A stretch of 64,000 bases of DNA from Thermodesulfobacteriota bacterium. GTDB taxonomy: Bacteria > Desulfobacterota > Desulfobacteria > Desulfobacterales > SURF-7. The DNA lies in contig JBMORA010000029.1 in the NCBI GenBank assembly GCA_049320885.1, positions 1 to 64,000 on the forward strand, written 5' to 3'. The position numbers were made by a program, and so were the translations under genes. Numbering within the stretch: position 1 is the first letter of the stretch; every line of letters begins with the position of its first letter. Under the pieces are notes generated by a model. That model had not been told where the DNA came from and did no database searches. It worked only from the letters and a program-made list of their open reading frames with translations. Shown piece by piece: positions 4,354 through 57,823 of this stretch.

Positions 4354-6657
4354 TCATGGCTGCCAATCCTGATCGTTATGCGATGGATCCAAACGATTCT
4401 TCCCATGGGTATGATCCAGGGCTTTCCGGATCGCCATGGCCAATTCCCGCTGGGTGATGGGTTTATCCAGATATTGGGTTACTCCGAACCGGGCGGCGGT
4501 GGATGCATCCACTTTCTCACTGAAGCCGGTACACAGGATGATCGGCAGATCGGAGCGTATGGCGAGCAGCTCGGCGGTCAGTTGCAGACCGTTCATCCCC
4601 GGCATGAGCATGTCCGTGATCACGAGGTCGAAAGATCGCGGCCTCTCGCTGAACATTCGCAGGGCTTCGCATGGATCCGTCACCGTCCGAATCCGGTATC
4701 CGAGATGGCCGATGGCTTTCATGCTGATGTCGACGATGGATTCCTCATCATCCACCAGCAGAATGCTTTCATTTCCTCTCGGAAGTTCGATCTCGTTTTC
4801 ATCCAATTGATCGGGAGCGGCTTCAACCGACGGCAGTAAAATCTCGAAAACGGCGCCTTCCCCGAGTTTGCTGGAAACCGATATGTGGCCTTCATGATTC
4901 TTGACAATGCCATGAACCACGGCAAGACCCATGCCCGACCCCTTGCCGGTCTCCTTCGTGGTGAAGTAGGGGTCGAAAATTTTCTCCAGCACCTCCGGAT
5001 GAATGCCGGCGCCGGTATCGGCTATGGAGATGCGGACATATTTTCCAGGCTTCAGTTCCGGGTATTGAGGCGCCAGCGCTTCGGCGGTGTCCACTTTCCG
5101 CAGACTGATTTCCAGTTTCCCGCCTCTCTCCTCCATGGCGTGGGCCGAATTCGTGCAAAGATTGATCAGGACCTGATGAATCTGGGTGGGATCGGCGACC
5201 ACCGGAGGAATATCATCCGGTGCGTCCAGGACAAAGAAAATGTTTTTGGGAATGGAGGCCTTCAACAAGGAGAGGGTTTCCTTTACGATTCTCACCAGAT
5301 CCGTCGGAAGCCGGTTCTGTTCTGTTTTCCGGCTGAAGCTGAGGATTTGCCGCACGACATCCTTGGCGCGCATGACGGCGGTTTTGATCTCTTGGAGGAA
5401 TTTGCGGGTGGGGCTCCAGTCCGGGAGATCATCGATGGCCAATTCCGTGTTGCCGAGAATAATTCCCAGAATATTATTGAAGTCATGCGCAATGCCGCCC
5501 GCCAGCCGACCGATGGATTCCATTTTATGTGACTGCCGGAGCTGGGATTCGAGCTTTTTGCGTTCGCTGATGTCGAAACTCACACCCAGGGCCGCGTACA
5601 TGGTTCCGTTTTCCGCCAACAGCGGATAGGTGGAAAACAAGGCGGGAAATGTTTCGCCGGATTTCCGCACCAGGACGGTTTCACCCGAAAACCCCTGGGC
5701 ACCCTCGCGCATTTTGCGATGAATTTCCGGAAATCTGGCCACGTCCTCGGGGATGTGGAGAACCGACACGGTTCTTCCCACCATTTCGTCACGCCTGTAT
5801 CCGAAAATGGTTTCCGCGCCTGGACTGAATTCGAGAACCGTCGGATCCGGATCCCCCGCGTCCGTCACAATGAAGGAAACGTTATCCGCTGATTTGAAAA
5901 TCGCCTTGATGCGCTCCTCGCTGTTTCGAAGATCGATATTGGCTTGTGTAAGGGCGTTGAAGGAATTGTTCAGGTTCGCCTGCATGATGTTGAACGCGTT
6001 TGCCAGCTGATCCAGCTCGTCGGGTGCGTCGTCGTTTTTCCGCGCCCTTCGGATGGCGAACGGTTTGGTGAAATGGTCGACATCCATGGTTTTTGCCCAG
6101 GCGGCCATATGAACAAGGTGTTTTCCGATCAGAATGTAGAAGAGAAAGAAAATGAAAATGGAAACCAGAAACGTGTTGATGGATTGTGTCGCAAGGATGA
6201 TCAGAATGCGGTCCATCAGCCTATCATGGATGCCGGACAGGCTGGCGACGATCCGCAGCGTGCCAAGGGGTATGCTTTCTCGGCGAAACGTTTGGGAAAG
6301 CGGGAAGCCGCGGGTGATGATGTCGGCCGAGGGCTTTGTGCCCAAGGAATGAATCGGCCGGCCGTCGACCTCGATGGCGACATAAGCGATATTGGGCAGA
6401 CGCAGCAGGCCCTGAAGCTGGGTTTTCAGCAATTCCTCATCCGTCACCCAGAGACTTTTCGTGATGCTTTCAAGGTGGCTCGATCGGATTTGCCGGAAGG
6501 TCTGGTAAATGGAGTCGATATCACGGGCGTAGTCCACATGGAGCTGGAGAAAGGTTCCCAGGGCGGTGACCACGGTGCTGAACAACAGAATGTAGAGGAT
6601 GAATTTGCGTCCGATGCTTCGATTTCTCACGGGAGTGTGGGCGCCGACATCATTCAT
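4354..6657 (-). CDS. Membrane hybrid sensor histidine kinase (HAMP-PAS-HisKA-HATPase-REC)
   Basis: Two TM segments, DELDQLA HAMP-like region, PAS, H-box GIAHDFNNIL, QVLINL, DTGAG, FTTK..GSGMGL, and a receiver domain LLVDDE...ITDMLMP...KP. Confidence 0.92.
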   Translation of the reverse strand: MNDVGAHTPVRNRSIGRKFILYILLFSTVVTALGTFLQLHVDYARDIDSIYQTFRQIRSSHLESITKSLWVTDEELLKTQLQGLLRLPNIAYVAIEVDGRPIHSLGTKPSADIITRGFPLSQTFRRESIPLGTLRIVASLSGIHDRLMDRILIILATQSINTFLVSIFIFFLFYILIGKHLVHMAAWAKTMDVDHFTKPFAIRRARKNDDAPDELDQLANAFNIMQANLNNSFNALTQANIDLRNSEERIKAIFKSADNVSFIVTDAGDPDPTVLEFSPGAETIFGYRRDEMVGRTVSVLHIPEDVARFPEIHRKMREGAQGFSGETVLVRKSGETFPALFSTYPLLAENGTMYAALGVSFDISERKKLESQLRQSHKMESIGRLAGGIAHDFNNILGIILGNTELAIDDLPDWSPTRKFLQEIKTAVMRAKDVVRQILSFSRKTEQNRLPTDLVRIVKETLSLLKASIPKNIFFVLDAPDDIPPVVADPTQIHQVLINLCTNSAHAMEERGGKLEISLRKVDTAEALAPQYPELKPGKYVRISIADTGAGIHPEVLEKIFDPYFTTKETGKGSGMGLAVVHGIVKNHEGHISVSSKLGEGAVFEILLPSVEAAPDQLDENEIELPRGNESILLVDDEESIVDISMKAIGHLGYRIRTVTDPCEALRMFSERPRSFDLVITDMLMPGMNGLQLTAELLAIRSDLPIILCTGFSEKVDASTAARFGVTQYLDKPITQRELAMAIRKALDHTHGKNRLDPSHNDQDWQP

Positions 6658-41565: not shown

Positions 41566-43428
41566 ATGTCATCCAAAAATGTGTCACATACATCCCTGAT
41601 GCCACAAACCGGTAAGCGACCCACCGCTGAAAAAGCGACTGCGCCGTCGGAGGAAATTCCCAACCGCTATTCGATCCGGGAAAGCGGATCGGAACGGATT
41701 TTGACCTGTATTGAAGCGCCCAATCTGCTGGTTCAGGTGAAAAACGGTTTGTCCGTTTCCGCCGCCGCCATGGCCAAATCTCCGCCGGGAACCATTTACC
41801 TGGACGGGGTGGCCCAAAACGGCCCCTTGCTGGACCATGCCAGACAGGTGTACAACTTTGATCACCATGAGGGCTGCATCCGGACGTTTACGCTGTCCAC
41901 CTGCGAACAGGTCCTGCTGATGATCAAAAAGGGGCTGGATCTGCGCAGCCGGGAATGGAAGATATTCGCCAACGATCCGGACCTGGATACGGTTCTGGCT
42001 GTCTGGCTGTTGTTGAATCATATCCGCATCAATGAACAGGAATCCATCCGGGAGCATATCCTGTTGCCCCTGGTCCGCCTTCAGGGCAGCATCGATTCCC
42101 TGGGACTGGAACTGAAACACCTGACGGGTCTCCCACCCGCGGTGCTGAATCAGAGCCAGCGCATCATCGATCATCTGCGCCGGAAGGAAATTCAGATCAA
42201 AAAGGAGGGCCGGTGGGAGGAGACGGATTTCCTGGAGTATACCGTCGGAGTGTTGCACGATATCGATCAGATCGTATATGAATCCAAAAAATTCGGAAAA
42301 TTATTGGGCATTGAGGAACTGGCGCGGGTCAATCTGCCGGATAACCGTGTGGCCGTGGTGCTGCAGTCCGACATGGGAATTTACGAGATCGAACCCCAAT
42401 TGAAGAAAATCTACGGCGGCAACATCGGTCTTGCGATCCTGCGGCGATCACCGTCGGCATATACCCTGCGGCAGGTGGATCCGTTTCTGCGCGGAAATCT
42501 GGAGGATGTGTACGACAAGCTGAATTTCATGGATCCGGCCGTGAAATACCGGAATGTAACCAACAAATGGGGAGGGGCTTCCGATATCGGCGGATCGCCG
42601 CGGGAAAGCGGGACAATGCTGACCCCGGAAGAAATCGCCAAAGGATGCCGCGACACGTTTCAGAAGTATTCCTTCTTGCAGAAGCTGCTGGATATATCCC
42701 TGATGGCCGGTTATTCCCTGGCGGCGTTGTTTTTGGCCGAACTCCTGGCGGCGTACTGGCGGCCCCTCGACTGGTTCGACGCACCGCTTGTCAATGCGGT
42801 TACCGCCGACCCCTATTTCGGATTCAGTTCCGGGCTGTTCCTGTTGGCCACCATCATCCTGGTCGCCGTGTCCGGTCGAAGACCGTGGCAGTTCGGAATC
42901 ATACGGCCCCTGGGGAAAAAATGGTGGCTCCTGTTGCCGCTCACGGTTCTGGCGGCTTTTGCCGGCGGCGCCTGGGCGCCGATGGCAAAGCTCCATCCGC
43001 AGCCTCCGGATGGTCTCCTCCTGCTGATAACCTGTATCCTGCTGACTTTCTCCGCCGAATATCTTTTCCGCTCCGTGCTGCATGGTGTTCTGGCCCAACG
43101 GTCCAGAATCCAGAATTATGAGAGCCGCTATTTCATTTCCTGGCCGAATCTCGGGACCGCTTGTCTGTACAGCATTTTCCTGACTTTTCTACCGTTCTTT
43201 CCCGATGAGTCCTTTCATCCGCTGTCCCTCAACCTCAGACCGGGCTCTCTGTATATCGCCGCCTTCCTTTTCAGTATGACGCTGGGTTTTGTCCGGGAAC
43301 GCTCCCATAGTTTTTTTACCGCTTTCCTGTTTCATCTGATCTCGGTTCTCTCGGTTGTGTTTTTACCGGACACGCTGATGAGCCTTGTTCCGTTGGCGTC
43401 CTTTTTGTGGTCGAAATTACCGTTATAA
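41566..43428 (+). CDS. Fusion protein: soluble DHH-like domain plus CPBP/CAAX-protease-like membrane domain
   Basis: IYLDG, NFDHHEG, NDPDLD, WGG..GGSPR, followed by about 7 TM helices with AEYLFRS, VRERSHS and FLFH. Confidence 0.65.
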   Translation: MSSKNVSHTSLMPQTGKRPTAEKATAPSEEIPNRYSIRESGSERILTCIEAPNLLVQVKNGLSVSAAAMAKSPPGTIYLDGVAQNGPLLDHARQVYNFDHHEGCIRTFTLSTCEQVLLMIKKGLDLRSREWKIFANDPDLDTVLAVWLLLNHIRINEQESIREHILLPLVRLQGSIDSLGLELKHLTGLPPAVLNQSQRIIDHLRRKEIQIKKEGRWEETDFLEYTVGVLHDIDQIVYESKKFGKLLGIEELARVNLPDNRVAVVLQSDMGIYEIEPQLKKIYGGNIGLAILRRSPSAYTLRQVDPFLRGNLEDVYDKLNFMDPAVKYRNVTNKWGGASDIGGSPRESGTMLTPEEIAKGCRDTFQKYSFLQKLLDISLMAGYSLAALFLAELLAAYWRPLDWFDAPLVNAVTADPYFGFSSGLFLLATIILVAVSGRRPWQFGIIRPLGKKWWLLLPLTVLAAFAGGAWAPMAKLHPQPPDGLLLLITCILLTFSAEYLFRSVLHGVLAQRSRIQNYESRYFISWPNLGTACLYSIFLTFLPFFPDESFHPLSLNLRPGSLYIAAFLFSMTLGFVRERSHSFFTAFLFHLISVLSVVFLPDTLMSLVPLASFLWSKLPL

Positions 43429-44367: not shown

Positions 44368-47300
44368 TCAGGCCCCTTCGAAAAAATCGTATCTTTTGTC
44401 ATTCTTCGCCTCTGGCATCGGCGTTCCGTTGGAACCCGCTGAATGGATACCGGACAACGCCGGTTGAGAAAATTTGGATACGGCCGTCACATGGGACACG
44501 TTCAGCGTAAGGGCGCCGAAATCCTCTTCCACCCTGCCGCTGAGGATGTAGGGACGGCTGCGATCCAGCAGCGCGCAGAAACGCCGGTAGGTTTCCGGGA
44601 AAAAAGTGGTTTCCACCAGACCGGTTTCATCCTCGAAAGTGAGGAATTCCATGGGTTCGTCGTGGCGGGTGCGCACCACCTTGCCGGTGATCAGCAGGCC
44701 GGCGAAGCGGATGCGGCGCCCCGCATGCCGGCCCAGCTCCATTGCTTTGACGAGACCGGTATCCGGCAGCCGGTCTTTGTACAGGGACATGGGATGAAAG
44801 CTGCACAGAAATCCGAGAACCTCGTATTCCCGCCGCAGGCGCTGGTATCCATCGTCCGGAGGCAGCACCGGCCGCCGGATACCCGGAAGCGGATGGAACA
44901 GGTCCCGGGATGGCAGCCGAGAGTTTCGGGAGTCCCGCCAGACCGCCACCTCCCATGACAAGTCGGCATGGCTAGCGCCGGGCCTGAGCGCGTCCAGGGC
45001 GCCGCTGTGAATGAGCGCCCGGACTTCGATGTCATCGGGGCGGACCCGCTCAAGAAAATCCGTGACGGTTTCATAGGGGCCGGTTTGCCGGTTTTCCAGG
45101 ATGCGACGCTGCACTCCGGCCCCCAGGTTTTTGACGGACTGGAGTCCCACCCGCAGGTGTTTCCCCCGGCCCTGCCAGCGGATCCGGCTGTGATTGACGT
45201 CGGGGTGGAGAATCGTCAGCCCCATGCGCCGCGCCTCGGATACATAGGCGCAGGTGTTGTAAAATCCGCCCTGGTTGCTGATCACCGCGGCCATGAATTC
45301 GGCCGGATGGCGGGCCTTGAGAAAGGCGGATTGGAAGGAAACCCTGGCATAGCTGGCGCTATGGGGCTTGCAGAAGGAGTAGCCCCCGAAGCTCAGGATC
45401 ATTTCCCAGACCGCCCGGAGCTGCTCGTCCGTCAATCCCCGTGAGCGGGCCCCGTCGAAAAAGCGGATTCGGTAGTCGTCCAGTTCAAGGACTTTGTCTT
45501 TTTTGGAGATGATTTTCCGCAGGCCGTCGGCCTCGGCATGGGAAAAACCGGCCAGGACCACGGCGGCTTTGGCGACATCTTCCTGATAGACCATGATGCC
45601 GTAAGTTTCCTCCAGGACATCGGCCAGGAGGGGATGGATGGGGTTCCAAGAGGCGCCGTGGAGACGGCGGAGGTATTCGCGGATAAAGGCATTCGCTGCC
45701 GGCCGGATAATGCTGCTGTGGATGACGATATGCTCGAAATCGCCGACCTTGGCCTTTTTCTGGAGCTGGCGGGTGGCCGGGCTTTCAATGTAAAAACAGC
45801 CCATGGTGTCGCCCCGGGCCACGGCGTCCCGGGTTACGGGATCATCCTCCGGTTCCCAGCGGCTTTCATCAAAGGTGACGCCGTTTTCCCGCAGACCGGC
45901 CACGGCGTCCCGGATCACGCCCAGGCTGCGGTTGCCGAGCAGGTCGATTTTGACCAGACCGCTTTCCTCGGCAGCGTCCTTTTCCCACTGGATGATGGGG
46001 ACGCCTTTGGGGGCGGTTTGAACGGGCACGTAGCCGGCGATGGGTTCCGGGGTGATGACCATGCCGCCGGAATGGACGGATAGATAGCGCGGGATGCCGA
46101 TCAGGCGTCGGGCCAGGCGGATGATGTCCGGCCAGGGGGCGGGGAAGGCCGTGGCTTTCATTTCCGGAACCTGTCGCAACTGGGTCAGCAGATCGTCCTC
46201 CATATGGCGGCTCCGCCAGTACCAGGGCAGGCGCCGGGTGATCCGGCTGATTTCGGTGTCCGTGAGGCCATGGACCTTGGCGACTTCCCGGATGGCCATG
46301 CGCGGCTGAAAAAGGACATGGTTGCACACCATGGCCGCATGACCGTCGTACTGCTTCAGGACGGAAGCCAGCACTTGGTCCCGCTCATCCCAGGCGAAAT
46401 CGATATCGATATCCGGCGGGTCCTTGCGTCCCGGATTCAGGAAGCGTTCGAAGTAGAGATTGTGTTTGACCGGGCAGACATTGGTGATGCCCAGGACATA
46501 GGCCACCAGGGAGGCCGCGCCGCTGCCGCGGCCGCAGATTCGCGGGCTGCGGCGCACGATATCCCGCACCACCAGAAAATAGGAGGAAAAGCCCATCCGG
46601 TCGATGACGGCCAGTTCATGTTCCAGACGGTCCACCACGGTTTCCGGCAGATCGTTGCCATAACGCCGGCGGGCCCCCTTGTAAGCGGCTTCACGAAGGA
46701 CGGCGGCGGCGGAACGCCCGTGGGGGTCGATCCAGGGAGGCATGACCAGACCGAAATCCGGACCGGTGAAGGCCAGCTCTTCGGCCAGCCGCCTGCCGGC
46801 GGTCACGGCTTCCGGCCAGGCGGCGAAGCGCCGGGAATACTCAGACGGTTCCGCCAGAAAGGCGTCGGCGGGCGCTGTGTCGTTTTGGGTCAGACGGGGC
46901 AGGGTGGTGCGGAGCTGGATGGCGCGCAGCAGCCGGTGGACCGCATTGTCATGGGGGTGAAGAAAAAAGGCTCCCGGTGTGGCCACAACCGGAATCTCCA
47001 GGCGGCGCGCCAGCCGCCGCAGTTGGAAATCCCCTGCGCCGGGGCGCCGGGGCAGGGGAATGGCCACGGATATCCCGGCGTTCCGCCACAACTCCAGCAG
47101 GTCCGGATGACGGGTCAGCACCACCAGCCCCTCGGAACGGACCATGACCGCCTTGGCCAGATCGAAATCTTCCCCGCGGTGCCGCTCGGTGATCAACCGG
47201 CAGAGTTGGCCATAGCCCGCCGCGTTTTTTACCAGACAGACGGCCCGGCGGTTTCTCGAGGGATCGGTCACCTCCACGCCCACGATGGGCGCAAGCCCGT

Positions 47301-47463
47301 TCCTTCGGCAGGCCTTGAGAAAGGGCCACAGGCCGTACAGATTGTCGGTATCCGTAAGGGCCAGCCGAAGGTAGCCCAACTGTCCGGCCCGCCGGCAGAT
47401 TTCTTCGGGGGAGGACACCCCCCACATGAGGGAATAGTGGGAGCGCAGGGTGAGGGGGATCAT
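44368..47463 (-). CDS. dnaE2: Error-prone-type DNA polymerase III alpha subunit
   Basis: PHP domain (RSHYSL, LALTDTDNLYG), GRGSGAAS, FERFLN, catalytic PPDIDIDF and KIDLLG, YSFCKPH, OB fold (FLTFEDETG). Lies in a lexA-led cassette. Confidence 0.88.
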   Translation of the reverse strand: MIPLTLRSHYSLMWGVSSPEEICRRAGQLGYLRLALTDTDNLYGLWPFLKACRRNGLAPIVGVEVTDPSRNRRAVCLVKNAAGYGQLCRLITERHRGEDFDLAKAVMVRSEGLVVLTRHPDLLELWRNAGISVAIPLPRRPGAGDFQLRRLARRLEIPVVATPGAFFLHPHDNAVHRLLRAIQLRTTLPRLTQNDTAPADAFLAEPSEYSRRFAAWPEAVTAGRRLAEELAFTGPDFGLVMPPWIDPHGRSAAAVLREAAYKGARRRYGNDLPETVVDRLEHELAVIDRMGFSSYFLVVRDIVRRSPRICGRGSGAASLVAYVLGITNVCPVKHNLYFERFLNPGRKDPPDIDIDFAWDERDQVLASVLKQYDGHAAMVCNHVLFQPRMAIREVAKVHGLTDTEISRITRRLPWYWRSRHMEDDLLTQLRQVPEMKATAFPAPWPDIIRLARRLIGIPRYLSVHSGGMVITPEPIAGYVPVQTAPKGVPIIQWEKDAAEESGLVKIDLLGNRSLGVIRDAVAGLRENGVTFDESRWEPEDDPVTRDAVARGDTMGCFYIESPATRQLQKKAKVGDFEHIVIHSSIIRPAANAFIREYLRRLHGASWNPIHPLLADVLEETYGIMVYQEDVAKAAVVLAGFSHAEADGLRKIISKKDKVLELDDYRIRFFDGARSRGLTDEQLRAVWEMILSFGGYSFCKPHSASYARVSFQSAFLKARHPAEFMAAVISNQGGFYNTCAYVSEARRMGLTILHPDVNHSRIRWQGRGKHLRVGLQSVKNLGAGVQRRILENRQTGPYETVTDFLERVRPDDIEVRALIHSGALDALRPGASHADLSWEVAVWRDSRNSRLPSRDLFHPLPGIRRPVLPPDDGYQRLRREYEVLGFLCSFHPMSLYKDRLPDTGLVKAMELGRHAGRRIRFAGLLITGKVVRTRHDEPMEFLTFEDETGLVETTFFPETYRRFCALLDRSRPYILSGRVEEDFGALTLNVSHVTAVSKFSQPALSGIHSAGSNGTPMPEAKNDKRYDFFEGA

Positions 47464-48668
47464 GGCGCCGTGTTTCCGCTACGACCGGCCGCCGGCCTTG
47501 CAAGGGTCCTTCCCAGGCAAAGGGACTGGAAGCCGAAACGCTCCCGGATTCGATCCAAGGCCGCCTGCAACGCTTGCTGCCGCCTGTTTTCCGCCGTCGG
47601 ATCGTCAAACAGCTCCAGTTGGCGCGAAGGGGGAGAAAGCCGGTCACAGATCAGGGAGATTCGGCGGACCCGCACCCGGCGCAGCCAGATATGGGCCAGG
47701 GTTTTTCGGGCCGTGACAAAGAGAGGATAATCGGCGGCGGCCGGCGGCTGGACAGGGTTTCTTCGGGTGCTGCACCGGTCGTCGGAATATTCCAGGACCA
47801 GGCCGATCCGCCGGCAGGCCAGCCGCCGGTTGCGCAGGCAAAGGCCGGCCTGCTCGACCAGGCGGTGGAGGCCGCTTTCCACCACGGCGGGATCGTTGGT
47901 ATCGTCGTCGAAGTCGTGATCCAGACGGATGCTCGGGGGGCGCCGGCCGGCGGGGAGGACCGGCGAGGGGTCGATGCCGCGGACGGCCGCAAGCAGGAAG
48001 GGGTGCGGCCGTCCGAGCAGAATCTCCAGTTGGCGGGGGTCGAGGACGGCCACCTCGCCGGCCCGCCGCAGGTTGAATTCCTTCAAGCGCTGTTGTTCGA
48101 ACTCCTCGATTCCCGGAATCAGTTGAATGGGCAGGGGGGCCAGAAAACCGGCTTCTTCTCCCGGCGGGACGATATAGTCGCCTGCCGGCTTGACCAGGCG
48201 CGAGGCCACCTTGGCCACCAGTTTGTTGGCCGCCACGGTCCAGATGGGGTCAATGCCCAGGTCGGCGCGGATGGCGTTGCGGATGCGGCGGGCCACATCC
48301 TGGGGCGGGCCGAACAACCGGCCGGTGCCGGTGGCGTCCATGAACAGGTGTCCCCGGTGGTCCGTGATTTCGATCAGCGGGGAATAGGGCCGCGCATGCT
48401 TGAAAAGGGCGGCCATGGCCTGCTCATACCGATCGGGACGGGGCGGGGTCACGGCCGCATCCCGGCATTGCCGCAAGGCCCGGCCCAGGAACATGCCCTT
48501 GCGGACCCCCTGGCAATAGGCCTCTTCGCTCATGTCATAAACGACCGCCCGCGCCGTCCCGGCGGGCGCCACGATCAGGGGCCGCCGGCGCAGCCGGGGT
48601 TCCAGCAGACGCTCCACGGCCACGGCGAAATCGGCCACATTCAGATGGATGACGGTCCGGACGGGCAT
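47460..48668 (-). CDS. Y-family polymerase homolog, predicted inactive (ImuB-like/DinB-like)
   Basis: IHLNVADFAVAVE, NKLVAKVAS...KPAG, IPGI, QLELF, LDRIRERFG. Catalytic acidic residues are missing. Confidence 0.85.
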   Translation of the reverse strand: MPVRTVIHLNVADFAVAVERLLEPRLRRRPLIVAPAGTARAVVYDMSEEAYCQGVRKGMFLGRALRQCRDAAVTPPRPDRYEQAMAALFKHARPYSPLIEITDHRGHLFMDATGTGRLFGPPQDVARRIRNAIRADLGIDPIWTVAANKLVAKVASRLVKPAGDYIVPPGEEAGFLAPLPIQLIPGIEEFEQQRLKEFNLRRAGEVAVLDPRQLEILLGRPHPFLLAAVRGIDPSPVLPAGRRPPSIRLDHDFDDDTNDPAVVESGLHRLVEQAGLCLRNRRLACRRIGLVLEYSDDRCSTRRNPVQPPAAADYPLFVTARKTLAHIWLRRVRVRRISLICDRLSPPSRQLELFDDPTAENRRQQALQAALDRIRERFGFQSLCLGRTLARPAAGRSGNTAP

Positions 48669-48669
48669 C

Positions 48670-49518
48670 TCACGCCACCGTAAGCCCCTCTTGCCTGAGA
48701 AGCCCGATCAGCTGACGGGCGTTCTCCACGGCCTGGGCCCGGACATGGTTGTTGAAAAACAGCAGAATTGTTTTGGCCCGGCCGGCCATGGGCAGAATTT
48801 TCTCCTGGACCCACTCCCGCAGTTGTTCATCGGAGTAGGAGTAGTCAAACTGCTGCTGCAGGTTTCCTGAGCGCCACCCCCGGGCATTGCGGCCGTGAAA
48901 GCGTACATAACAAAGATCCGGATTGGTCACCACGTCCGGGGAGGTGAAAAGGCCGGGGAGGGGGGGGATGTCCACATGGACCAGCGTGACGCGACGGCGC
49001 TCCAGTTCGGCGAAGACCCGGTCGTTGGCCCAGGAATGATGCCGGAATTCCACGGCCAGGGGCAGATCCGCCAGTTCATCGAGCAGGGCGGCCAGATGGG
49101 CCCGGCGGTCGGGAGTCCGGCTGAAAGACGGCGGCAGCTGCACCAGGACGGCCCCGAGCTGGCCGCCCTGTCGCAGGGGAGCGATGCCGTTCCGGTATCC
49201 GGCGGCTTGGAGGGGCCAGTTTTGCGGATCGATCTCATGGGTGAGGGTGCGGGTCAGCTTCGCGGTGAAAATGAAATCCGCCGGAGCCTGCCGGCGTTGG
49301 CGTTCGACGGTGTCGGAGCGGGGCATCTGATACCAGGTGTAATTGAGTTCCGTCGCCGGAAACCGCCGGGCGTAAAGGGGCAGCATCCGGTTGGAGGACG
49401 TGCCCGGGGGATAAAATCCCGCTTCGACCCATTCCGTATAGGCGTAGCCGCTGGTGCCCACGTAAAGCCGGCCGCCGGCGGAGATATTTCGGGGGATGGG
49501 AGCTGGCTGGGCCGGCAT
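48670..49518 (-). CDS. DUF72 (YecE-like) TIM-barrel protein
   Basis: LYVGTSGYAYTEW, TELNYTWY, LVQLPPSF, AVEFRHHSW, YVRFHGRN, YSYSDEQL, FFNNH. Real start is about 49518. Confidence 0.92.
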   Translation of the reverse strand: MPAQPAPIPRNISAGGRLYVGTSGYAYTEWVEAGFYPPGTSSNRMLPLYARRFPATELNYTWYQMPRSDTVERQRRQAPADFIFTAKLTRTLTHEIDPQNWPLQAAGYRNGIAPLRQGGQLGAVLVQLPPSFSRTPDRRAHLAALLDELADLPLAVEFRHHSWANDRVFAELERRRVTLVHVDIPPLPGLFTSPDVVTNPDLCYVRFHGRNARGWRSGNLQQQFDYSYSDEQLREWVQEKILPMAGRAKTILLFFNNHVRAQAVENARQLIGLLRQEGLTVA

Positions 49519-49526
49519 GGCGAATG

Positions 49527-50150
49527 CTACTCCAGGTTCCGGATGACGCCGATGACCTTGCCCTGCACCAGCACCTCGCCGAGACCATACTGGACCGATG
49601 AAAAACGGGGATTCTCCGGCCGGAGCTCGATGACGGAGCCCTGCCGGAAAAACCGTTTCACAGTGGCTTCCTCCTGGCGGATCAGGGCCGCGACGATCTC
49701 GCCGTTTTCGGCAAACTGGCGTGGCTCGCAAATAACGATGTCCCGGTCCAGGATGGCGGCGTTTGTCATCGAATCGCCTTGAACCCGGAGGGCGAACAGG
49801 TGGGGGCTGCGATACAGGGCCGCATCCACCCAGACAGTGCCGGCCCATTCCTGCTGGGCGTACAGGGGCAGGCCGGCGGCAATGGTTCCCACGATGGGCA
49901 CCGGTTTGCCGCGCAGGGCCTCCTCGGTTTTGGGCGACGGCCGCAGCAGGAACAGATTCCGGCCGTAGCGGCCGCCGCGGTCGACGACCCCTTTTTGTTC
50001 CAGGGCCTTGATGAGCTGGGATACGGCGGCATGGCTGACGCCCAGGGCCGCGGCGGTCCGGCGCAGGCTGGGGGCAACCCCGGCGCGGAGGATTTCCTGT
50101 TCCAGAAATTGCAGCAGGCGGGCCTGCTTGGGGGTGAGTTCCGGCGCCAT
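49527..50150 (-). CDS. lexA: SOS repressor LexA
   Basis: LTPKQ..LL, PSLR HTH, PIVGTIAAGLP (Ala-Gly cleavage site), VQGDSM (Ser), EATVKR (Lys). AAGGAG RBS. Confidence 0.93.
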   Translation of the reverse strand: MAPELTPKQARLLQFLEQEILRAGVAPSLRRTAAALGVSHAAVSQLIKALEQKGVVDRGGRYGRNLFLLRPSPKTEEALRGKPVPIVGTIAAGLPLYAQQEWAGTVWVDAALYRSPHLFALRVQGDSMTNAAILDRDIVICEPRQFAENGEIVAALIRQEEATVKRFFRQGSVIELRPENPRFSSVQYGLGEVLVQGKVIGVIRNLE

Positions 50151-50196
50151 GTGTCATCTCCTTGGATTACTGGTAGGAGCCCTATCATGGGAAAAT

Positions 50197-50232
50197 GTAA
50201 ATGTCAATGTAAATATAAAAGTAAATATAAAA
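50197..50232 (-). promoter_or_regulatory. Triple 12-bp-period direct repeat containing a TTGACA hexamer upstream of lexA; candidate LexA operator/promoter
   Basis: Plus strand GTAAATGTCAAT GTAAATATAAAA GTAAATATAAAA; TTGACA on the minus strand at 50207-50202. Confidence 0.6.
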
Positions 50233-53936: not shown

Positions 53937-55934
53937 ATGTCCATTTTCAAGATCGTTTCCCCTTTCAAACCTGCGGGTGACCAGCCCGGGGCCATTGCCT
54001 CCCTGGTGGACGGGATCCGGTCCGGCAGCCCCCATCAGGTCCTGCTGGGAGTGACCGGTTCCGGGAAAACCTTCACCATGGCCAATGTCATTGAACAGGT
54101 CCAGAAACCCAGTCTGGTCATTGCCCCGAACAAAACCCTGGCCGCCCAATTGTACAGCGAGTTCAAATCCCTGTTTCCGGAAAATGCCGTCGAGTATTTC
54201 GTCAGTTATTACGACTACTACCAGCCGGAGGCCTATATTCCTTCCAGCGACACCTATATCCAGAAAGACTCCTCCATCAACGAAATGATCGATAAAATGC
54301 GGCATTCGGCCACCCGGTCCGTGCTGTCGCGCAACGATGTGCTCGTTGTCGCCAGCGTATCCTGCATTTACGGTCTCGGAGCCCCGGAAGATTACCTGGC
54401 CATGCGGATTGAACTGGAAAACGGCATGGAGCTATCCCGGGAGAAACTCCTGTCCGATCTGGTGGCCATGCAGTATGAACGCAACGACATCGATTTTTGC
54501 CGCGGGGTTTTCCGGGTCCGGGGGGACCGGGTTGAGATTTTTCCGGCCTATGAAGAAGACCGCGCTGTCCGGGTGGAATTTTTCGGTGATGAAATCGAGA
54601 GCCTGGCGGAAATCGACCCCCTGCGGGGCACGCTTCTGCGACGCTTGCCCCGGACCGTCATCTTTCCGGCCAGCCATTATGTAACCCAGCGTCAAACCCG
54701 TGAAAGGGCCATTGAAACCATCGTTGAGGAACTGAAGGGCCGCATCGATTTCTTCCGGAACGCCAACAAGCTGATCGAGGCCCAGCGCATTGAGGAGCGC
54801 ACCCATTTCGATCTCGAAATGATGCAGGAGATCGGGTATTGCAACGGAATCGAAAACTATGCCCGTCACCTCACCGGCAGAAAACCCGGGGAGCCTCCGC
54901 CCACCCTGCTGGATTATTATCCGGAGGAGTATTTGCTGTTCATCGATGAAAGCCATATCACGATTCCCCAGCTGCATGCCATGTACAAGGGGGACCGCTC
55001 CCGCAAGGAAACCCTGGTGGAATTCGGGTTCAGACTTCCGTCGGCCCTGGACAACCGGCCGCTGAGATTCGATGAATTCTCCGAAAAAGCGCGCCGGACC
55101 ATTTATGTTTCCGCCACTCCGGCGGACTATGAGTTGTCGCGATCCAACCGGAAACCCGTGGAACAGATCGCCAGGCCCACCGGTTTGATGGATCCGCAAA
55201 TTGAGGTCAGGCCGGCCAAAAACCAGGTGGATGATCTGCTGAATGAAATTCAGGTGCGGATCTCCCGCAATGAACGCGTGCTGGTCACGACCCTGACCAA
55301 ACGCATGGCGGAGGATTTGACCGACTACTATGCGGACATCGGGCTCCAGGTCCGTTACCTGCATTCGGATATCAAGACCATGGAACGGATGGAGATCATC
55401 CGCGATCTGCGCATCGGTTCCTTCCATGTGCTCATCGGCATCAATCTGCTCCGCGAAGGGCTCGATATCCCGGAAGTATCCCTGGTGGCCGTCATGGATG
55501 CGGACAAGGAAGGGTTCCTGCGTTCCGCGCGTTCTCTGATACAAACCTGTGGTCGGGCCGCCAGGAATGTCAACGGGATGGTGATCATGTATGCGGATAA
55601 TTTCACGGAGTCCATGCGCCGGGCCATCGAGGAGACCGAACGGCGGCGAAAAATTCAGGCGGAGTACAACACCGTGCACCGGATCACCCCGGAGAGCATC
55701 CGCAAGGACATTCCGGTCTCCTATCTGACCATCTCGGGAATCGAACAAACGGAACCTGCGGCCGTGGCCGAATCCGCGGCGGTATACGAAATGACGGAAG
55801 ACGAGATCACCGCCCGGATCACGGAAATGGAGCAGGAGATGCGCCGGGCCGCCGGGGACCTCGAGTTTGAAAAAGCGGCCGCGATCCGGGACCGGATCCG
55901 CAAGTTGCAGCAACTGCTGGTATTTGACTTTTAA
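53937..55934 (+). CDS. uvrB: Excinuclease ABC subunit B
   Basis: [37 protein letters not shown]-terminal UVR domain. Confidence 0.97.
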
Positions 55935-55954
55935 CCAAACCACGATTTCTCACC

Positions 55955-57823
55955 ATGGACATGGAATCCGACCAAGGCGATCATGAAAACCGGCTGAAGG
56001 ACCTGCTGCAGAAGGCGCCGGCCAAGCCCGGCGTCTATCTCATGAAAAACCGCAAAGGGCAGGTCATCTATGTGGGCAAAGCCAAGGATTTGAGGCGACG
56101 ATTGACCTCGTATTTCGTCCGCAAAGAAATGCCGGATCTGAAAACGACGGTGCTGGTTCAGCAGGTGGCCGAGCTGGAAACCATCGTCACGGCTTCCGAA
56201 AAGGAAGCCCTGATTCTGGAATCCAACCTGATCAAAAAACTCCGCCCGCGCTACAACGTCATTTTGAAAGATGATAAGCGCTACCCCTCGCTGCGGTTGA
56301 ACACGGAAGAGCCCTATCCGTATTTATCCATCGTCCGGAAAATCAAAAACGACGGCGGCCTGGTTTTCGGTCCCTACACCTCGTCCGCGGCGGTGGGCAA
56401 AACCCTGAAACTGATCAACCGGACCTTCAAGCTGCGGAAATGCCGCACCCGGGCATTTGCGGGCAGGACCAGGCCCTGTCTGAACTACCAGATGGGCACC
56501 TGCTTGGGGCCCTGTTGCCTGCCGGTGGATCCGGCGGAGTATCAAACGATCGTGGACGAGGTGGTGCTGTTTTTATCCGGGCGCACGCCCGCGCTGATCA
56601 AGAACATCAAAGAGGCCATGCTCGCGGCGGCGGCCGATGAAGACTATGAACGCGCCGTTGTTCTGCGGGACAAGATGTTCGCCCTGGAAAAAACCCTGGA
56701 AAAGCAGGCGGCCGTTTCCACCGATTTCGCCGATCGCGATGTTGTGGCCGTCGCCGGCGATTTTGAAACCCGCGTCCTGACCATCCTGTTTGTGCGGGGA
56801 GGATTTATCCAGGGAATCCGGCATTTCGTGTTCAAAGAGAGTCTGGCGGGCGATCCGGAGCTGATGGAAGCCTTCGTGCGCCAATTTTATGAACAGGCGC
56901 AATTCATTCCGAGGGAAATACTGGTCACGGTTCTACCGGAAAACCCATCCCTGGTGGAAGATTGGCTGCACATGGCCAAAGGGAAAAAAGTGCGCCTGCT
57001 TTCGCCCCAGCGGGGGGACAAGAAAATGATTCTTCGCCTGGCGCTGGAAAACGCGGCGAAGGAACAACGCCAGTTGACGGATACCGACCATTCCCTACAG
57101 AAATTGTTGGAGCGCCTGCAACACAAACTGATGCTGCCGAGGATGCCGGAACGGATAGAGTGTTTTGACAATTCGACCCTGGCCGGCAGCTCGCCGGTGG
57201 CCGGCATGGTCGTCTATCACAACGGCAGGGCCGATAAGCATTCCTATCGACGATACCGCCTGCGGAACATCACCGTTCCGGACGATTACGCTTCCATGCA
57301 GGAAGTGATGCAACGGCGCTTCGGTCATCGAAAACCCGGAGAACCCTTGCCAGACTTGTTGCTGGTGGACGGAGGCAGAGGCCAGCTGGGAGTGGTCTGT
57401 TCCCTATTGACGGAATTCGGCTTGAACCATCTGGTGCCGGCCGCCGGCATTGCCAAAAAAGAGGCCCGGAAAGGAGAAACCGAAGACAAGGTGTATCTTC
57501 CCGGCAGATCCAATCCCATCGGCTTCGGCCTGGAAAAAGATTTATTGCTGTTTCTGCAACAGATCCGGGACGAGGCCCACCGGTTTGCCATCAGCTTCCA
57601 TCATCAGCGGCGATCGACGGTTTCCCTCCGTTCGGTCCTGGATGATATCCCCGGCGTCGGACCTAAACGCAAGAAAATGCTGCTGCGGCATTTCGGCAGC
57701 CTTGAAAAAATCCGGGCGGCGACTCCGGAAGAGATCGGAGCGCTGCCCGGTATGAGCGTTAGCCTGGCGGAAACCATTTTGGAAGCCCTGGGCCGGAATA
57801 AGCGGTCGCAGACCAAGGATTGA
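55955..57823 (+). CDS. uvrC: Excinuclease ABC subunit C
   Basis: PGVYLM...IYVGKAK GIY-YIG, PRYN..LKDDK, IECFDNS, LVDGGRGQ, RDEAHRFA, HhH motif. Confidence 0.97.
   Translation: MDMESDQGDHENRLKDLLQKAPAKPGVYLMKNRKGQVIYVGKAKDLRRRLTSYFVRKEMPDLKTTVLVQQVAELETIVTASEKEALILESNLIKKLRPRYNVILKDDKRYPSLRLNTEEPYPYLSIVRKIKNDGGLVFGPYTSSAAVGKTLKLINRTFKLRKCRTRAFAGRTRPCLNYQMGTCLGPCCLPVDPAEYQTIVDEVVLFLSGRTPALIKNIKEAMLAAAADEDYERAVVLRDKMFALEKTLEKQAAVSTDFADRDVVAVAGDFETRVLTILFVRGGFIQGIRHFVFKESLAGDPELMEAFVRQFYEQAQFIPREILVTVLPENPSLVEDWLHMAKGKKVRLLSPQRGDKKMILRLALENAAKEQRQLTDTDHSLQKLLERLQHKLMLPRMPERIECFDNSTLAGSSPVAGMVVYHNGRADKHSYRRYRLRNITVPDDYASMQEVMQRRFGHRKPGEPLPDLLLVDGGRGQLGVVCSLLTEFGLNHLVPAAGIAKKEARKGETEDKVYLPGRSNPIGFGLEKDLLLFLQQIRDEAHRFAISFHHQRRSTVSLRSVLDDIPGVGPKRKKMLLRHFGSLEKIRAATPEEIGALPGMSVSLAETILEALGRNKRSQTKD

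Follow-up and report, generated by a model that had tools for sequence, protein, structure and literature searches.

The ImuA-ImuB-DnaE2 cassettes of Caulobacter, Pseudomonas and Mycobacterium combine a dead Y-family scaffold, which carries clamp-binding and RecA-NT motifs, with an active DnaE2 polymerase in a LexA-headed operon (PMC12926913). In other operons imuA is missing; there an inactive Y-family protein (iPolY) is encoded with DnaE2, and RecA was proposed to bind its RecA-NT-like tail (PMC6511836). This type has been named DnaE2B-iPolY-RecA, with a gbDinB2-like iPolY, and AlphaFold support was given for all 11 module types (PMC12926913). Here we examine a four-gene cassette, lexA-DUF72-iPolY-dnaE2, in a window of 64,000 nucleotides (positions 1 to 64,000, forward strand, of contig JBMORA010000029.1, assembly GCA_049320885.1) from a Thermodesulfobacteriota bacterium. 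We consider it likely that the cassette is a LexA-headed operon for a predicted RecA-dependent error-prone polymerase, made of a dead Y-family scaffold and DnaE2. It would also encode a dispensable DUF72 enzyme, probably acting on damaged DNA beside the polymerase and not as a stand-in for ImuA.

The literature contains close parallels. Table S4 of PMC6511836 gives LexA-{1}-iPolY-DnaE2 for Desulfococcus oleovorans Hxd3 and Desulfocapsa sulfexigens, the inserted gene being unnamed there. They account for 2 of the 18 gbDinB2-like rows, or 2 of 10 when only rows with lexA in the operon are counted, and D. oleovorans is also among the gbDinB2-like rows of Table S2. The term DUF72 is absent from the supplement of PMC6511836 and from the available part of that of PMC12926913. 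DUF72 is enriched near damage-inducible PolB2 translesion operons, where it was noted as a UVDE-related TIM barrel (PMC11791011). Tm1631, a DUF72 protein of solved structure (1VPQ), was predicted to be a lesion endonuclease from docking and simulation (PMC3828134). As had been suspected, DUF72 was already on record near an SOS polymerase operon (PolB2), and a predicted endonuclease role is also in print. A literature search joining DUF72 with DnaE2 returned only a mycobacterial paper on Rv0004, probably a prefix match. Searches on DUF72 with endonuclease or DNA repair gave the Tm1631 and PolB2 papers and one on fruit-fly microbiota, and a wider search gave mostly work on yecE as a phage insertion site.

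The cassette and its predicted RecA-type mutasome core

The four genes of the cassette are as follows.

50150-49527, minus strand: lexA, open reading frame (ORF) of 207 amino acids (aa), Pfam LexA_DNA_bind and Peptidase_S24
49518-48670, minus strand: DUF72 gene, 282 aa, Pfam PF01904
48668-47460, minus strand: Y-family gene (iPolY), 402 aa, Pfam IMS and IMS_C
47463-44368, minus strand: dnaE-type gene (DnaE2), 1031 aa, Pfam PHP, Pol III alpha, finger, HhH and OB

The ORF coordinates bear out the co-oriented arrangement of the original prediction, with 8 base pairs (bp) between lexA and DUF72, 1 bp between DUF72 and iPolY, and a 4-bp overlap of iPolY and dnaE2. A 495-aa ORF (50157-48670) was rejected as the DUF72 start, its frame overlapping lexA. 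Homologues were compared in a set of 80 close loci, which ranked best among 277 retrieved with iPolY and are mutually related and not independent. The gene order recurs in most of the 80, so the arrangement is not due to chance. dnaE2 follows iPolY in 76 of them, and the named loci closest to the cassette are Desulfobacterales. The four genes are a probable LexA-controlled operon, in line with the single operon that had been proposed.

The host genome is 98.2% complete. By tblastn it holds a single lexA and a single DUF72 gene and, beyond the cassette, one further Y-family gene and one further dnaE; its full-length RecA scores 474 bits. A whole-genome search with the NCBIfam ImuA model matched only RecA and one weak protein, both below the cut-off, in agreement with the description of the cassette as ImuA-less. 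The weak match is presumably RadA/Sms, judging from its sequence motif. For ImuB, tblastn found only the one other Y-family match; stand-alone ImuB-C was not searched for.

The Y-family protein was expected to be dead, and comparison with E. coli DinB agrees. N10 stands in place of D8 and G106-H107 in place of D103-E104, so all three canonical metal-binding carboxylates are lost. H8, D13, E100, G106, H107 and D111 are invariant in 64/64 close iPolY homologues. The dead active site (residues 8-14 and 100-111) is thus not drifting and may mark a new binding surface. Two motifs lie near the C-terminus.

47607-47621, minus strand: QLELF, clamp-binding-type motif, iPolY residues 350-354
47511-47585, minus strand: RecA-NT-like motif, iPolY residues ~362-386, a predicted RecA-binding site

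Q350 is conserved in 64 of 64 homologues, L353 in 60 and F354 in 62. Judged by the consensus for such motifs, QLELF is probably a beta-clamp motif. Profile-profile comparison with hhalign aligned the 64 iPolY tails to 27 RecA N-termini with a score of 20.1 (E value 6.6e-5), while 12 control windows scored 5.5-8.7. DUF4113 was matched in 33 of the 64 iPolY members, with E values up to 0.5. BLASTP gave no alignment between the iPolY tail and the N-terminus of the host's own RecA, and RecA was not among the top genome matches shown for a plain hidden Markov model (HMM) of the tail. Since the tail is homologous to the RecA N-terminus by the profile comparison, RecA is predicted to fill the role of ImuA.

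The iPolY model has a single terminal helix (358-378) and no strands beyond residue 342. There is accordingly no ImuB-C beta-barrel; the protein stops soon after the RecA-NT helix. Its motifs match those in the gbDinB2-like rows of D. oleovorans and Desulfocapsa, read by eye from unaligned rows, and in a tree the iPolY clade is nested among other inactive dnaE2-linked proteins. The window protein is thus probably a gbDinB2-like iPolY.

In DnaE2 the C-family catalytic aspartates D351, D353 and D507 are kept in 65/65 aligned homologues, suggesting an active polymerase. The product falls below both the DnaE1 and the DnaE2 NCBIfam cut-offs. It is a second copy, next to a separate DnaE encoded on contig C1 (~30% identity). 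On one complete chromosome (G337, loci L003 and L186) lexA-DUF72-iPolY is kept, and the only dnaE2 sequence found is a partial, stop-containing piece far off. This split may reflect a rearrangement or a sequencing error.

The cassette resembles DnaE2B-iPolY-RecA in its inactive DinB-like protein with a RecA-NT tail and no ImuB-C, encoded right before dnaE2, in its leading lexA and in the absence of imuA. It differs in that the published description leaves the inserted gene unnamed and, in its available parts, describes no operator. Like ImuA-ImuB-DnaE2, it has a dead scaffold with both motifs, an active-type DnaE2 and a leading lexA. Unlike that system, it has neither ImuA nor an ImuB-C barrel, its Y-family protein is nearer DinB than ImuB, RecA is the predicted partner, and the gene in the imuA position encodes a TIM barrel. 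The idea of a variant mutasome defined by DUF72 was not upheld, ImuA-less iPolY-DnaE2 being already published, mostly without DUF72. The polymerase core is known, and what the locus adds is DUF72 and a candidate operator.

DUF72 as a probable co-regulated, dispensable enzyme

The DUF72 product matches its Pfam family with 199 bits against a cut-off of 25.3 (E value 1e-58), and is the sole DUF72 found in the genome. Its predicted structure (pLDDT 91) is a TIM barrel and not a RecA fold. Among Foldseek's top 1000 chains the solved DUF72 structures 1VPQ, 1VPY and 1ZTV match with Z scores of 31-32. MbnB, sugar epimerases, UVDE and endonuclease IV (Endo IV) follow, tied at about 13-16, with Endo IV at 12.9. 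Tm1631 is 33% identical to the window protein (match E value 3e-39, Z 32.3, root-mean-square deviation (rmsd) 2.0), and its proposed phosphate-binding and aromatic residues are conserved. It differs in that no SOS context is reported for it in the available text (PMC3828134).

A polar pocket is formed by E57, Y63, K87, Q127, E157, R159, D183, R206, H208 and N257. E57, Y63, K87, Q127, E157, R159 and R206 are present in 54/54 diverse DUF72 proteins, and D183, H208 and N257 in 52/54. By our own mapping the pocket coincides with N44, Y47/Y48, K72, H79, Q114, R145 and R191, the proposed DNA-phosphate residues of Tm1631. Mean identity to the window proteins is 65% for DUF72, 64% for DnaE2, 60% for LexA and 56% for iPolY, so DUF72 is conserved as well as DnaE2. 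The operon DUF72 proteins form one long-stem clade with its own conserved residues. Its nearest sampled relatives are two stand-alone genes. DinB-linked DUF72 proteins were considered as a sister of this clade and rejected, since full-length sequences place them in a separate clade. (In the DUF72 and iPolY trees the support labels on the way to the new root sit one node off and were read accordingly.)

Among the 80 close loci DUF72 lies upstream of iPolY in 71, is missing in 7 that have at least 3 kilobases (kb) upstream, and cannot be scored in 2 cut by the contig end, giving 71/78 informative loci. Two of the 71 (L018 and L073) hold DUF72 deletion remnants. A phylum survey was made on an even sample of 300 genomes, of which the 40 best iPolY matches were examined. 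DUF72 was adjacent in 5 of 11 close iPolY loci, in 0 of 19 loci with a distant inactive iPolY (two of these having <600 bp upstream) and in 0 of 10 active matches. The expectation that DUF72 is conserved next to dnaE2 thus holds in one lineage and fails among the distant loci.

In the iPolY tree DUF72-less members are nested at no fewer than seven places within the DUF72-bearing clade. In six of the seven DUF72-less genomes of the first set the search turned up either no DUF72 at all or a distant protein of 27-32% identity (genome completeness not given). The L039 genome carries an orthologous DUF72 on another contig, with no lexA in the fetched flank. A further loss appears in one genus of the host's family (L293), as do others in a related family, at 5 of 11 informative loci. 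The pattern suggests a single gain of DUF72 followed by many losses, at least seven, with iPolY-dnaE2 retained.

The original prediction had placed DUF72 in the imuA slot of a variant mutasome. The RecA-NT tail, which predicts RecA in the role of ImuA, the TIM-barrel fold and the repeated losses speak against DUF72 filling that role. We regard it as probably a dispensable enzyme, regulated together with the polymerase, whose catalytic pocket is conserved. As to its chemistry, we tentatively propose that it processes phosphodiesters or sugar phosphates at lesions by nicking or end clean-up.

DUF72 also occurs near repair genes of other kinds. In a metagenome set (12 of 80 loci matched the DUF72 part) it directly follows an active Y-family polymerase in 4 of 5 loci with >1 kb upstream. 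DUF4130-DUF72 fusions make up 5 of 12 long matches (P0009, P0011, P0012, P0014 and P0016, several of them independent records), and DUF4130 has been linked to repair genes (PMC3765255). Distant plasmid examples have dnaE2 or Ku within ~4.5 kb of DUF72 in 2 of 3 cases. PolB2 operons, which neighbour DUF72 and SRAP, likewise place DUF72 near a translesion polymerase; unlike the cassette they consist of a B-family polymerase, iRadA and PPB2, and have no DnaE2 (PMC11791011). No lexA, polymerase or recA match was found near DUF72 in 14 viral loci. On one viral contig (L271) the gene immediately preceding DUF72 encodes a D12-class DNA adenine methyltransferase, and baseplate genes are adjacent.

Several observations weigh against a lesion-acting DUF72 in a RecA-dependent DnaE2B-type operon. 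The 80 close loci are kin of each other, chosen as the best of 277. The DnaE2B label of the window polymerase is provisional. The endonuclease proposal for Tm1631 comes from simulation only, and its crystals are without metals (PMC3828134). UVDE (Z 14.3, rmsd 3.9) is level with MbnB and the epimerases (Z 13.8-15.6), and on fold alone a nuclease cannot be told from these other proteins. In the phylum sample, the 20 stand-alone DUF72 genes that come next in similarity all lack lexA and dnaE2 as neighbours. The 47 neighbours scanned are mostly housekeeping genes, which leaves the family at large without a visible tie to repair.

Some of these points would suit a DUF72 that is merely a passenger, a nucleotide or sugar-phosphate enzyme inserted once behind lexA, unrelated to lesions and riding a mobile cassette. 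That it was gained once, in a single clade, and has often been lost agrees with this, as do the radical SAM, transketolase and other housekeeping genes beside its nearest stand-alone relatives and the parity of sugar epimerases or isomerases with repair nucleases in fold scores. The cassette is, moreover, found complete on a mobilizable plasmid, Do28_1 of Desulfosarcina ovata subsp. sediminis 28bB2T, where a variant of the upstream repeat described below accompanies it.

NZ_AP021877.1, 59962-65737: plasmid cassette (L179), close to genes for a TraA relaxase and an IS200/IS605 transposase

We nevertheless consider the passenger unlikely. DUF72 is strongly conserved across two host families under a promoter predicted to be repressed without damage, and it was recruited separately next to active Y-family polymerases, PolB2 operons and DUF4130.

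Less likely again is that DUF72 serves in this clade as a physical mutasome subunit that binds iPolY or DnaE2 and is required for damage-induced mutagenesis to reach its full level. Its place immediately ahead of iPolY is fixed, in many loci only a few bases away, and the long-stem clade with its own conserved residues would also fit a subunit. Two single-record proteins (P0005 and P0008) even unite DUF72 and iPolY sequence. Each has one of its two partners incomplete, which frameshifts in assemblies would explain, and together with P0007 they were set aside as probable artefacts. The repeated losses left iPolY-dnaE2 intact. The RecA-NT tail, which is the ImuA-binding element in ImuB, is also intact, and RecA is present. 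In the DUF72-less lineages at most 3 of 10 iPolY and 3 of 8 DnaE2 sequences deviate at any relaxed column. These columns do not cluster into a DUF72-dependent conserved patch on either protein, the values lying within the range of 300 random draws in a comparison of low power. Overall deviation was 0.040 in DUF72-less lineages versus 0.026 for iPolY (8% of draws) and 0.038 versus 0.022 for DnaE2 (<1% of draws). Two distant sequences contribute most to these differences, which were counted neither for nor against.

A candidate LexA operator upstream of lexA

LexA scores 166 bits, over the TIGR00498 cut-off, and is the sole lexA found in the genome (a single tblastn match). It carries S127, K165 and an A92-G93 cleavage site, the latter present in 71/71 close homologues. 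Upstream of its gene lies a series of direct repeats.

50195-50225, minus strand: candidate LexA operator, three repeats with 12-bp spacing (TTTAC at 50225, TTTACA at 50213 and 50201)

The repeats enclose a perfect -35 hexamer, TTGACA, at 50207-50202, and the direct repeat, TACATT-N6-TACATT, lies over this box. In relatives TAnnnT is conserved 17 bp after the -35 box; the window's own -10 matches poorly. Of the 68 loci that extend at least 300 bp upstream, 67 have a 19-bp core (three mismatches or fewer) 56-432 bp before lexA, and the core is otherwise missing from these loci. This conservation suggests that the direct repeat is probably a LexA operator.

The operator appears to be confined to lexA. 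With a half-site matrix run over the whole genome, it ranks first and second of 33 matches above 17 bits. It scores 31 bits, whereas the upstream regions of recA, dinB and uvrB stay below 6. The repeat was found before recA in 0 of 27 upstream regions (450 bp each, one shorter). When 31 related genomes were searched for the pattern, 15 had a match, one each, and 14 of these matches precede lexA. The backward control also matched in 7 of the 15, probably since the repeat reads alike backwards. A match inside a coding region (L285) was taken as chance. We infer that LexA would control only this operon.

Related LexA proteins show how the site varies. In a related family the half-site is inverted, ATGTA-N4-TACAT, before lexA in 7 of 13 loci (L298-L305, L310). 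In two loci (L086 and L087) it is a direct repeat with 11-bp spacing, against 12 bp in most Desulfobacterales loci. The LexA recognition helix is nearly unchanged between the direct-repeat and inverted-repeat groups. LexA proteins with TACAT sites are 52-61% identical to the window LexA, and position 45 is mostly Ser in the inverted group versus Gln in the direct group. More distant cassette LexA proteins have different recognition helices and different repeats.

Other upstream arrangements were seen as well. Loci L096-L115 have their own promoter repeats before lexA, by eye for example TTACAG-type and TTCACC-type direct repeats and a TCTAAC palindrome. One family (L085, L088-L090 and L092, at about 4700-5000 in iPolY orientation) has iPolY-dnaE2 without adjacent lexA or DUF72. 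Several of its members carry CTAAAC-like upstream repeats, one a palindrome over the -35 box, suggesting another regulator. In genome G331 (L039 and L176) neither lexA nor DUF72 separates the operator from iPolY-dnaE2, which share a contig.

A close parallel among described sites is the direct-repeat box TTACACATATTTTWTACATA of Balneolaeota LexA, whose TTACA repeat was bound in gel shifts (PMC7739468). The window repeat shares its TTAC/TTACA half-site and its layout and differs in spacing, 12 bp here versus 13 in the printed consensus. The Bdellovibrio LexA site is TTAC-N3-GTAA, as cited in PMC8565304. Unlike the Balneolaeota and Bdellovibrio sites, the window repeat stands before one operon only and not before recA, and its half-site is inverted in the related family. 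No description of this operator in this lineage was found in the literature; Campoy 2005, Erill 2006 and Erill 2016 might hold one.

That the repeat is a mere promoter element or the site of another regulator, the operon not being LexA-controlled through it, is very unlikely, for while the repeat is AT-rich with a perfect TTGACA, is missing before recA, dinB and uvrB and persists in L039 without a neighbouring lexA, its conservation spans three repeats, well past a -35 box, 14 of the 15 pattern matches precede lexA, the related family with nearly the same recognition helix has the inverted half-site before lexA, and Balneolaeota LexA binds a similar direct repeat.

Under the operon reading favoured here, LexA bound to the direct repeat over the -35 box would repress this operon alone, and activated RecA would trigger LexA self-cleavage. 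iPolY would then use QLELF to bind the beta clamp and its RecA-NT tail to bind RecA, and would recruit DnaE2. DnaE2 would synthesise across lesions, following the published model (PMC12926913). DUF72 would have joined the operon in the ancestor of one Desulfobacterota clade and be co-induced with the polymerase. A bolder version, which we regard as doubtful, makes DUF72 a metal-independent lesion nuclease recruited separately by iPolY-DnaE2, active DinB and PolB2 to open or tidy sites before error-prone filling, with a LexA regulon of one operon and an operator that flipped from inverted to direct repeat between LexA proteins ~55% identical.

Neighbouring genes and implications

Two features of the window lie close to the cassette.

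53937-57823, plus strand: uvrB- and uvrC-like genes, 4 kb from the cassette
41566-43428, plus strand: gene for a 620-aa protein, soluble and unannotated in its N-terminal part and weakly matching CAAX protease (Rce1-like) at its C-terminal end

The first pair, on the strand opposite the cassette, we take to be uvrB- and uvrC-like from their sequence. The operator repeat is absent upstream of the window uvrB.

Structures have been solved for the very widespread DUF72 family, for which no activity is known. Its conservation beside cassette genes in one lineage supports the claim that the arrangement gives DUF72 a testable link to the damage response. Should the LexA regulon here consist of just these four genes, DUF72 among them, the family would gain a direct, testable tie to DNA damage. 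Cassettes with and without DUF72 within one genus offer a natural comparison, and the cultured Desulfosarcina ovata subsp. sediminis 28bB2T carries the complete cassette. The direct and inverted half-sites of closely related LexA proteins would provide a way to study how LexA switches to direct-repeat binding.

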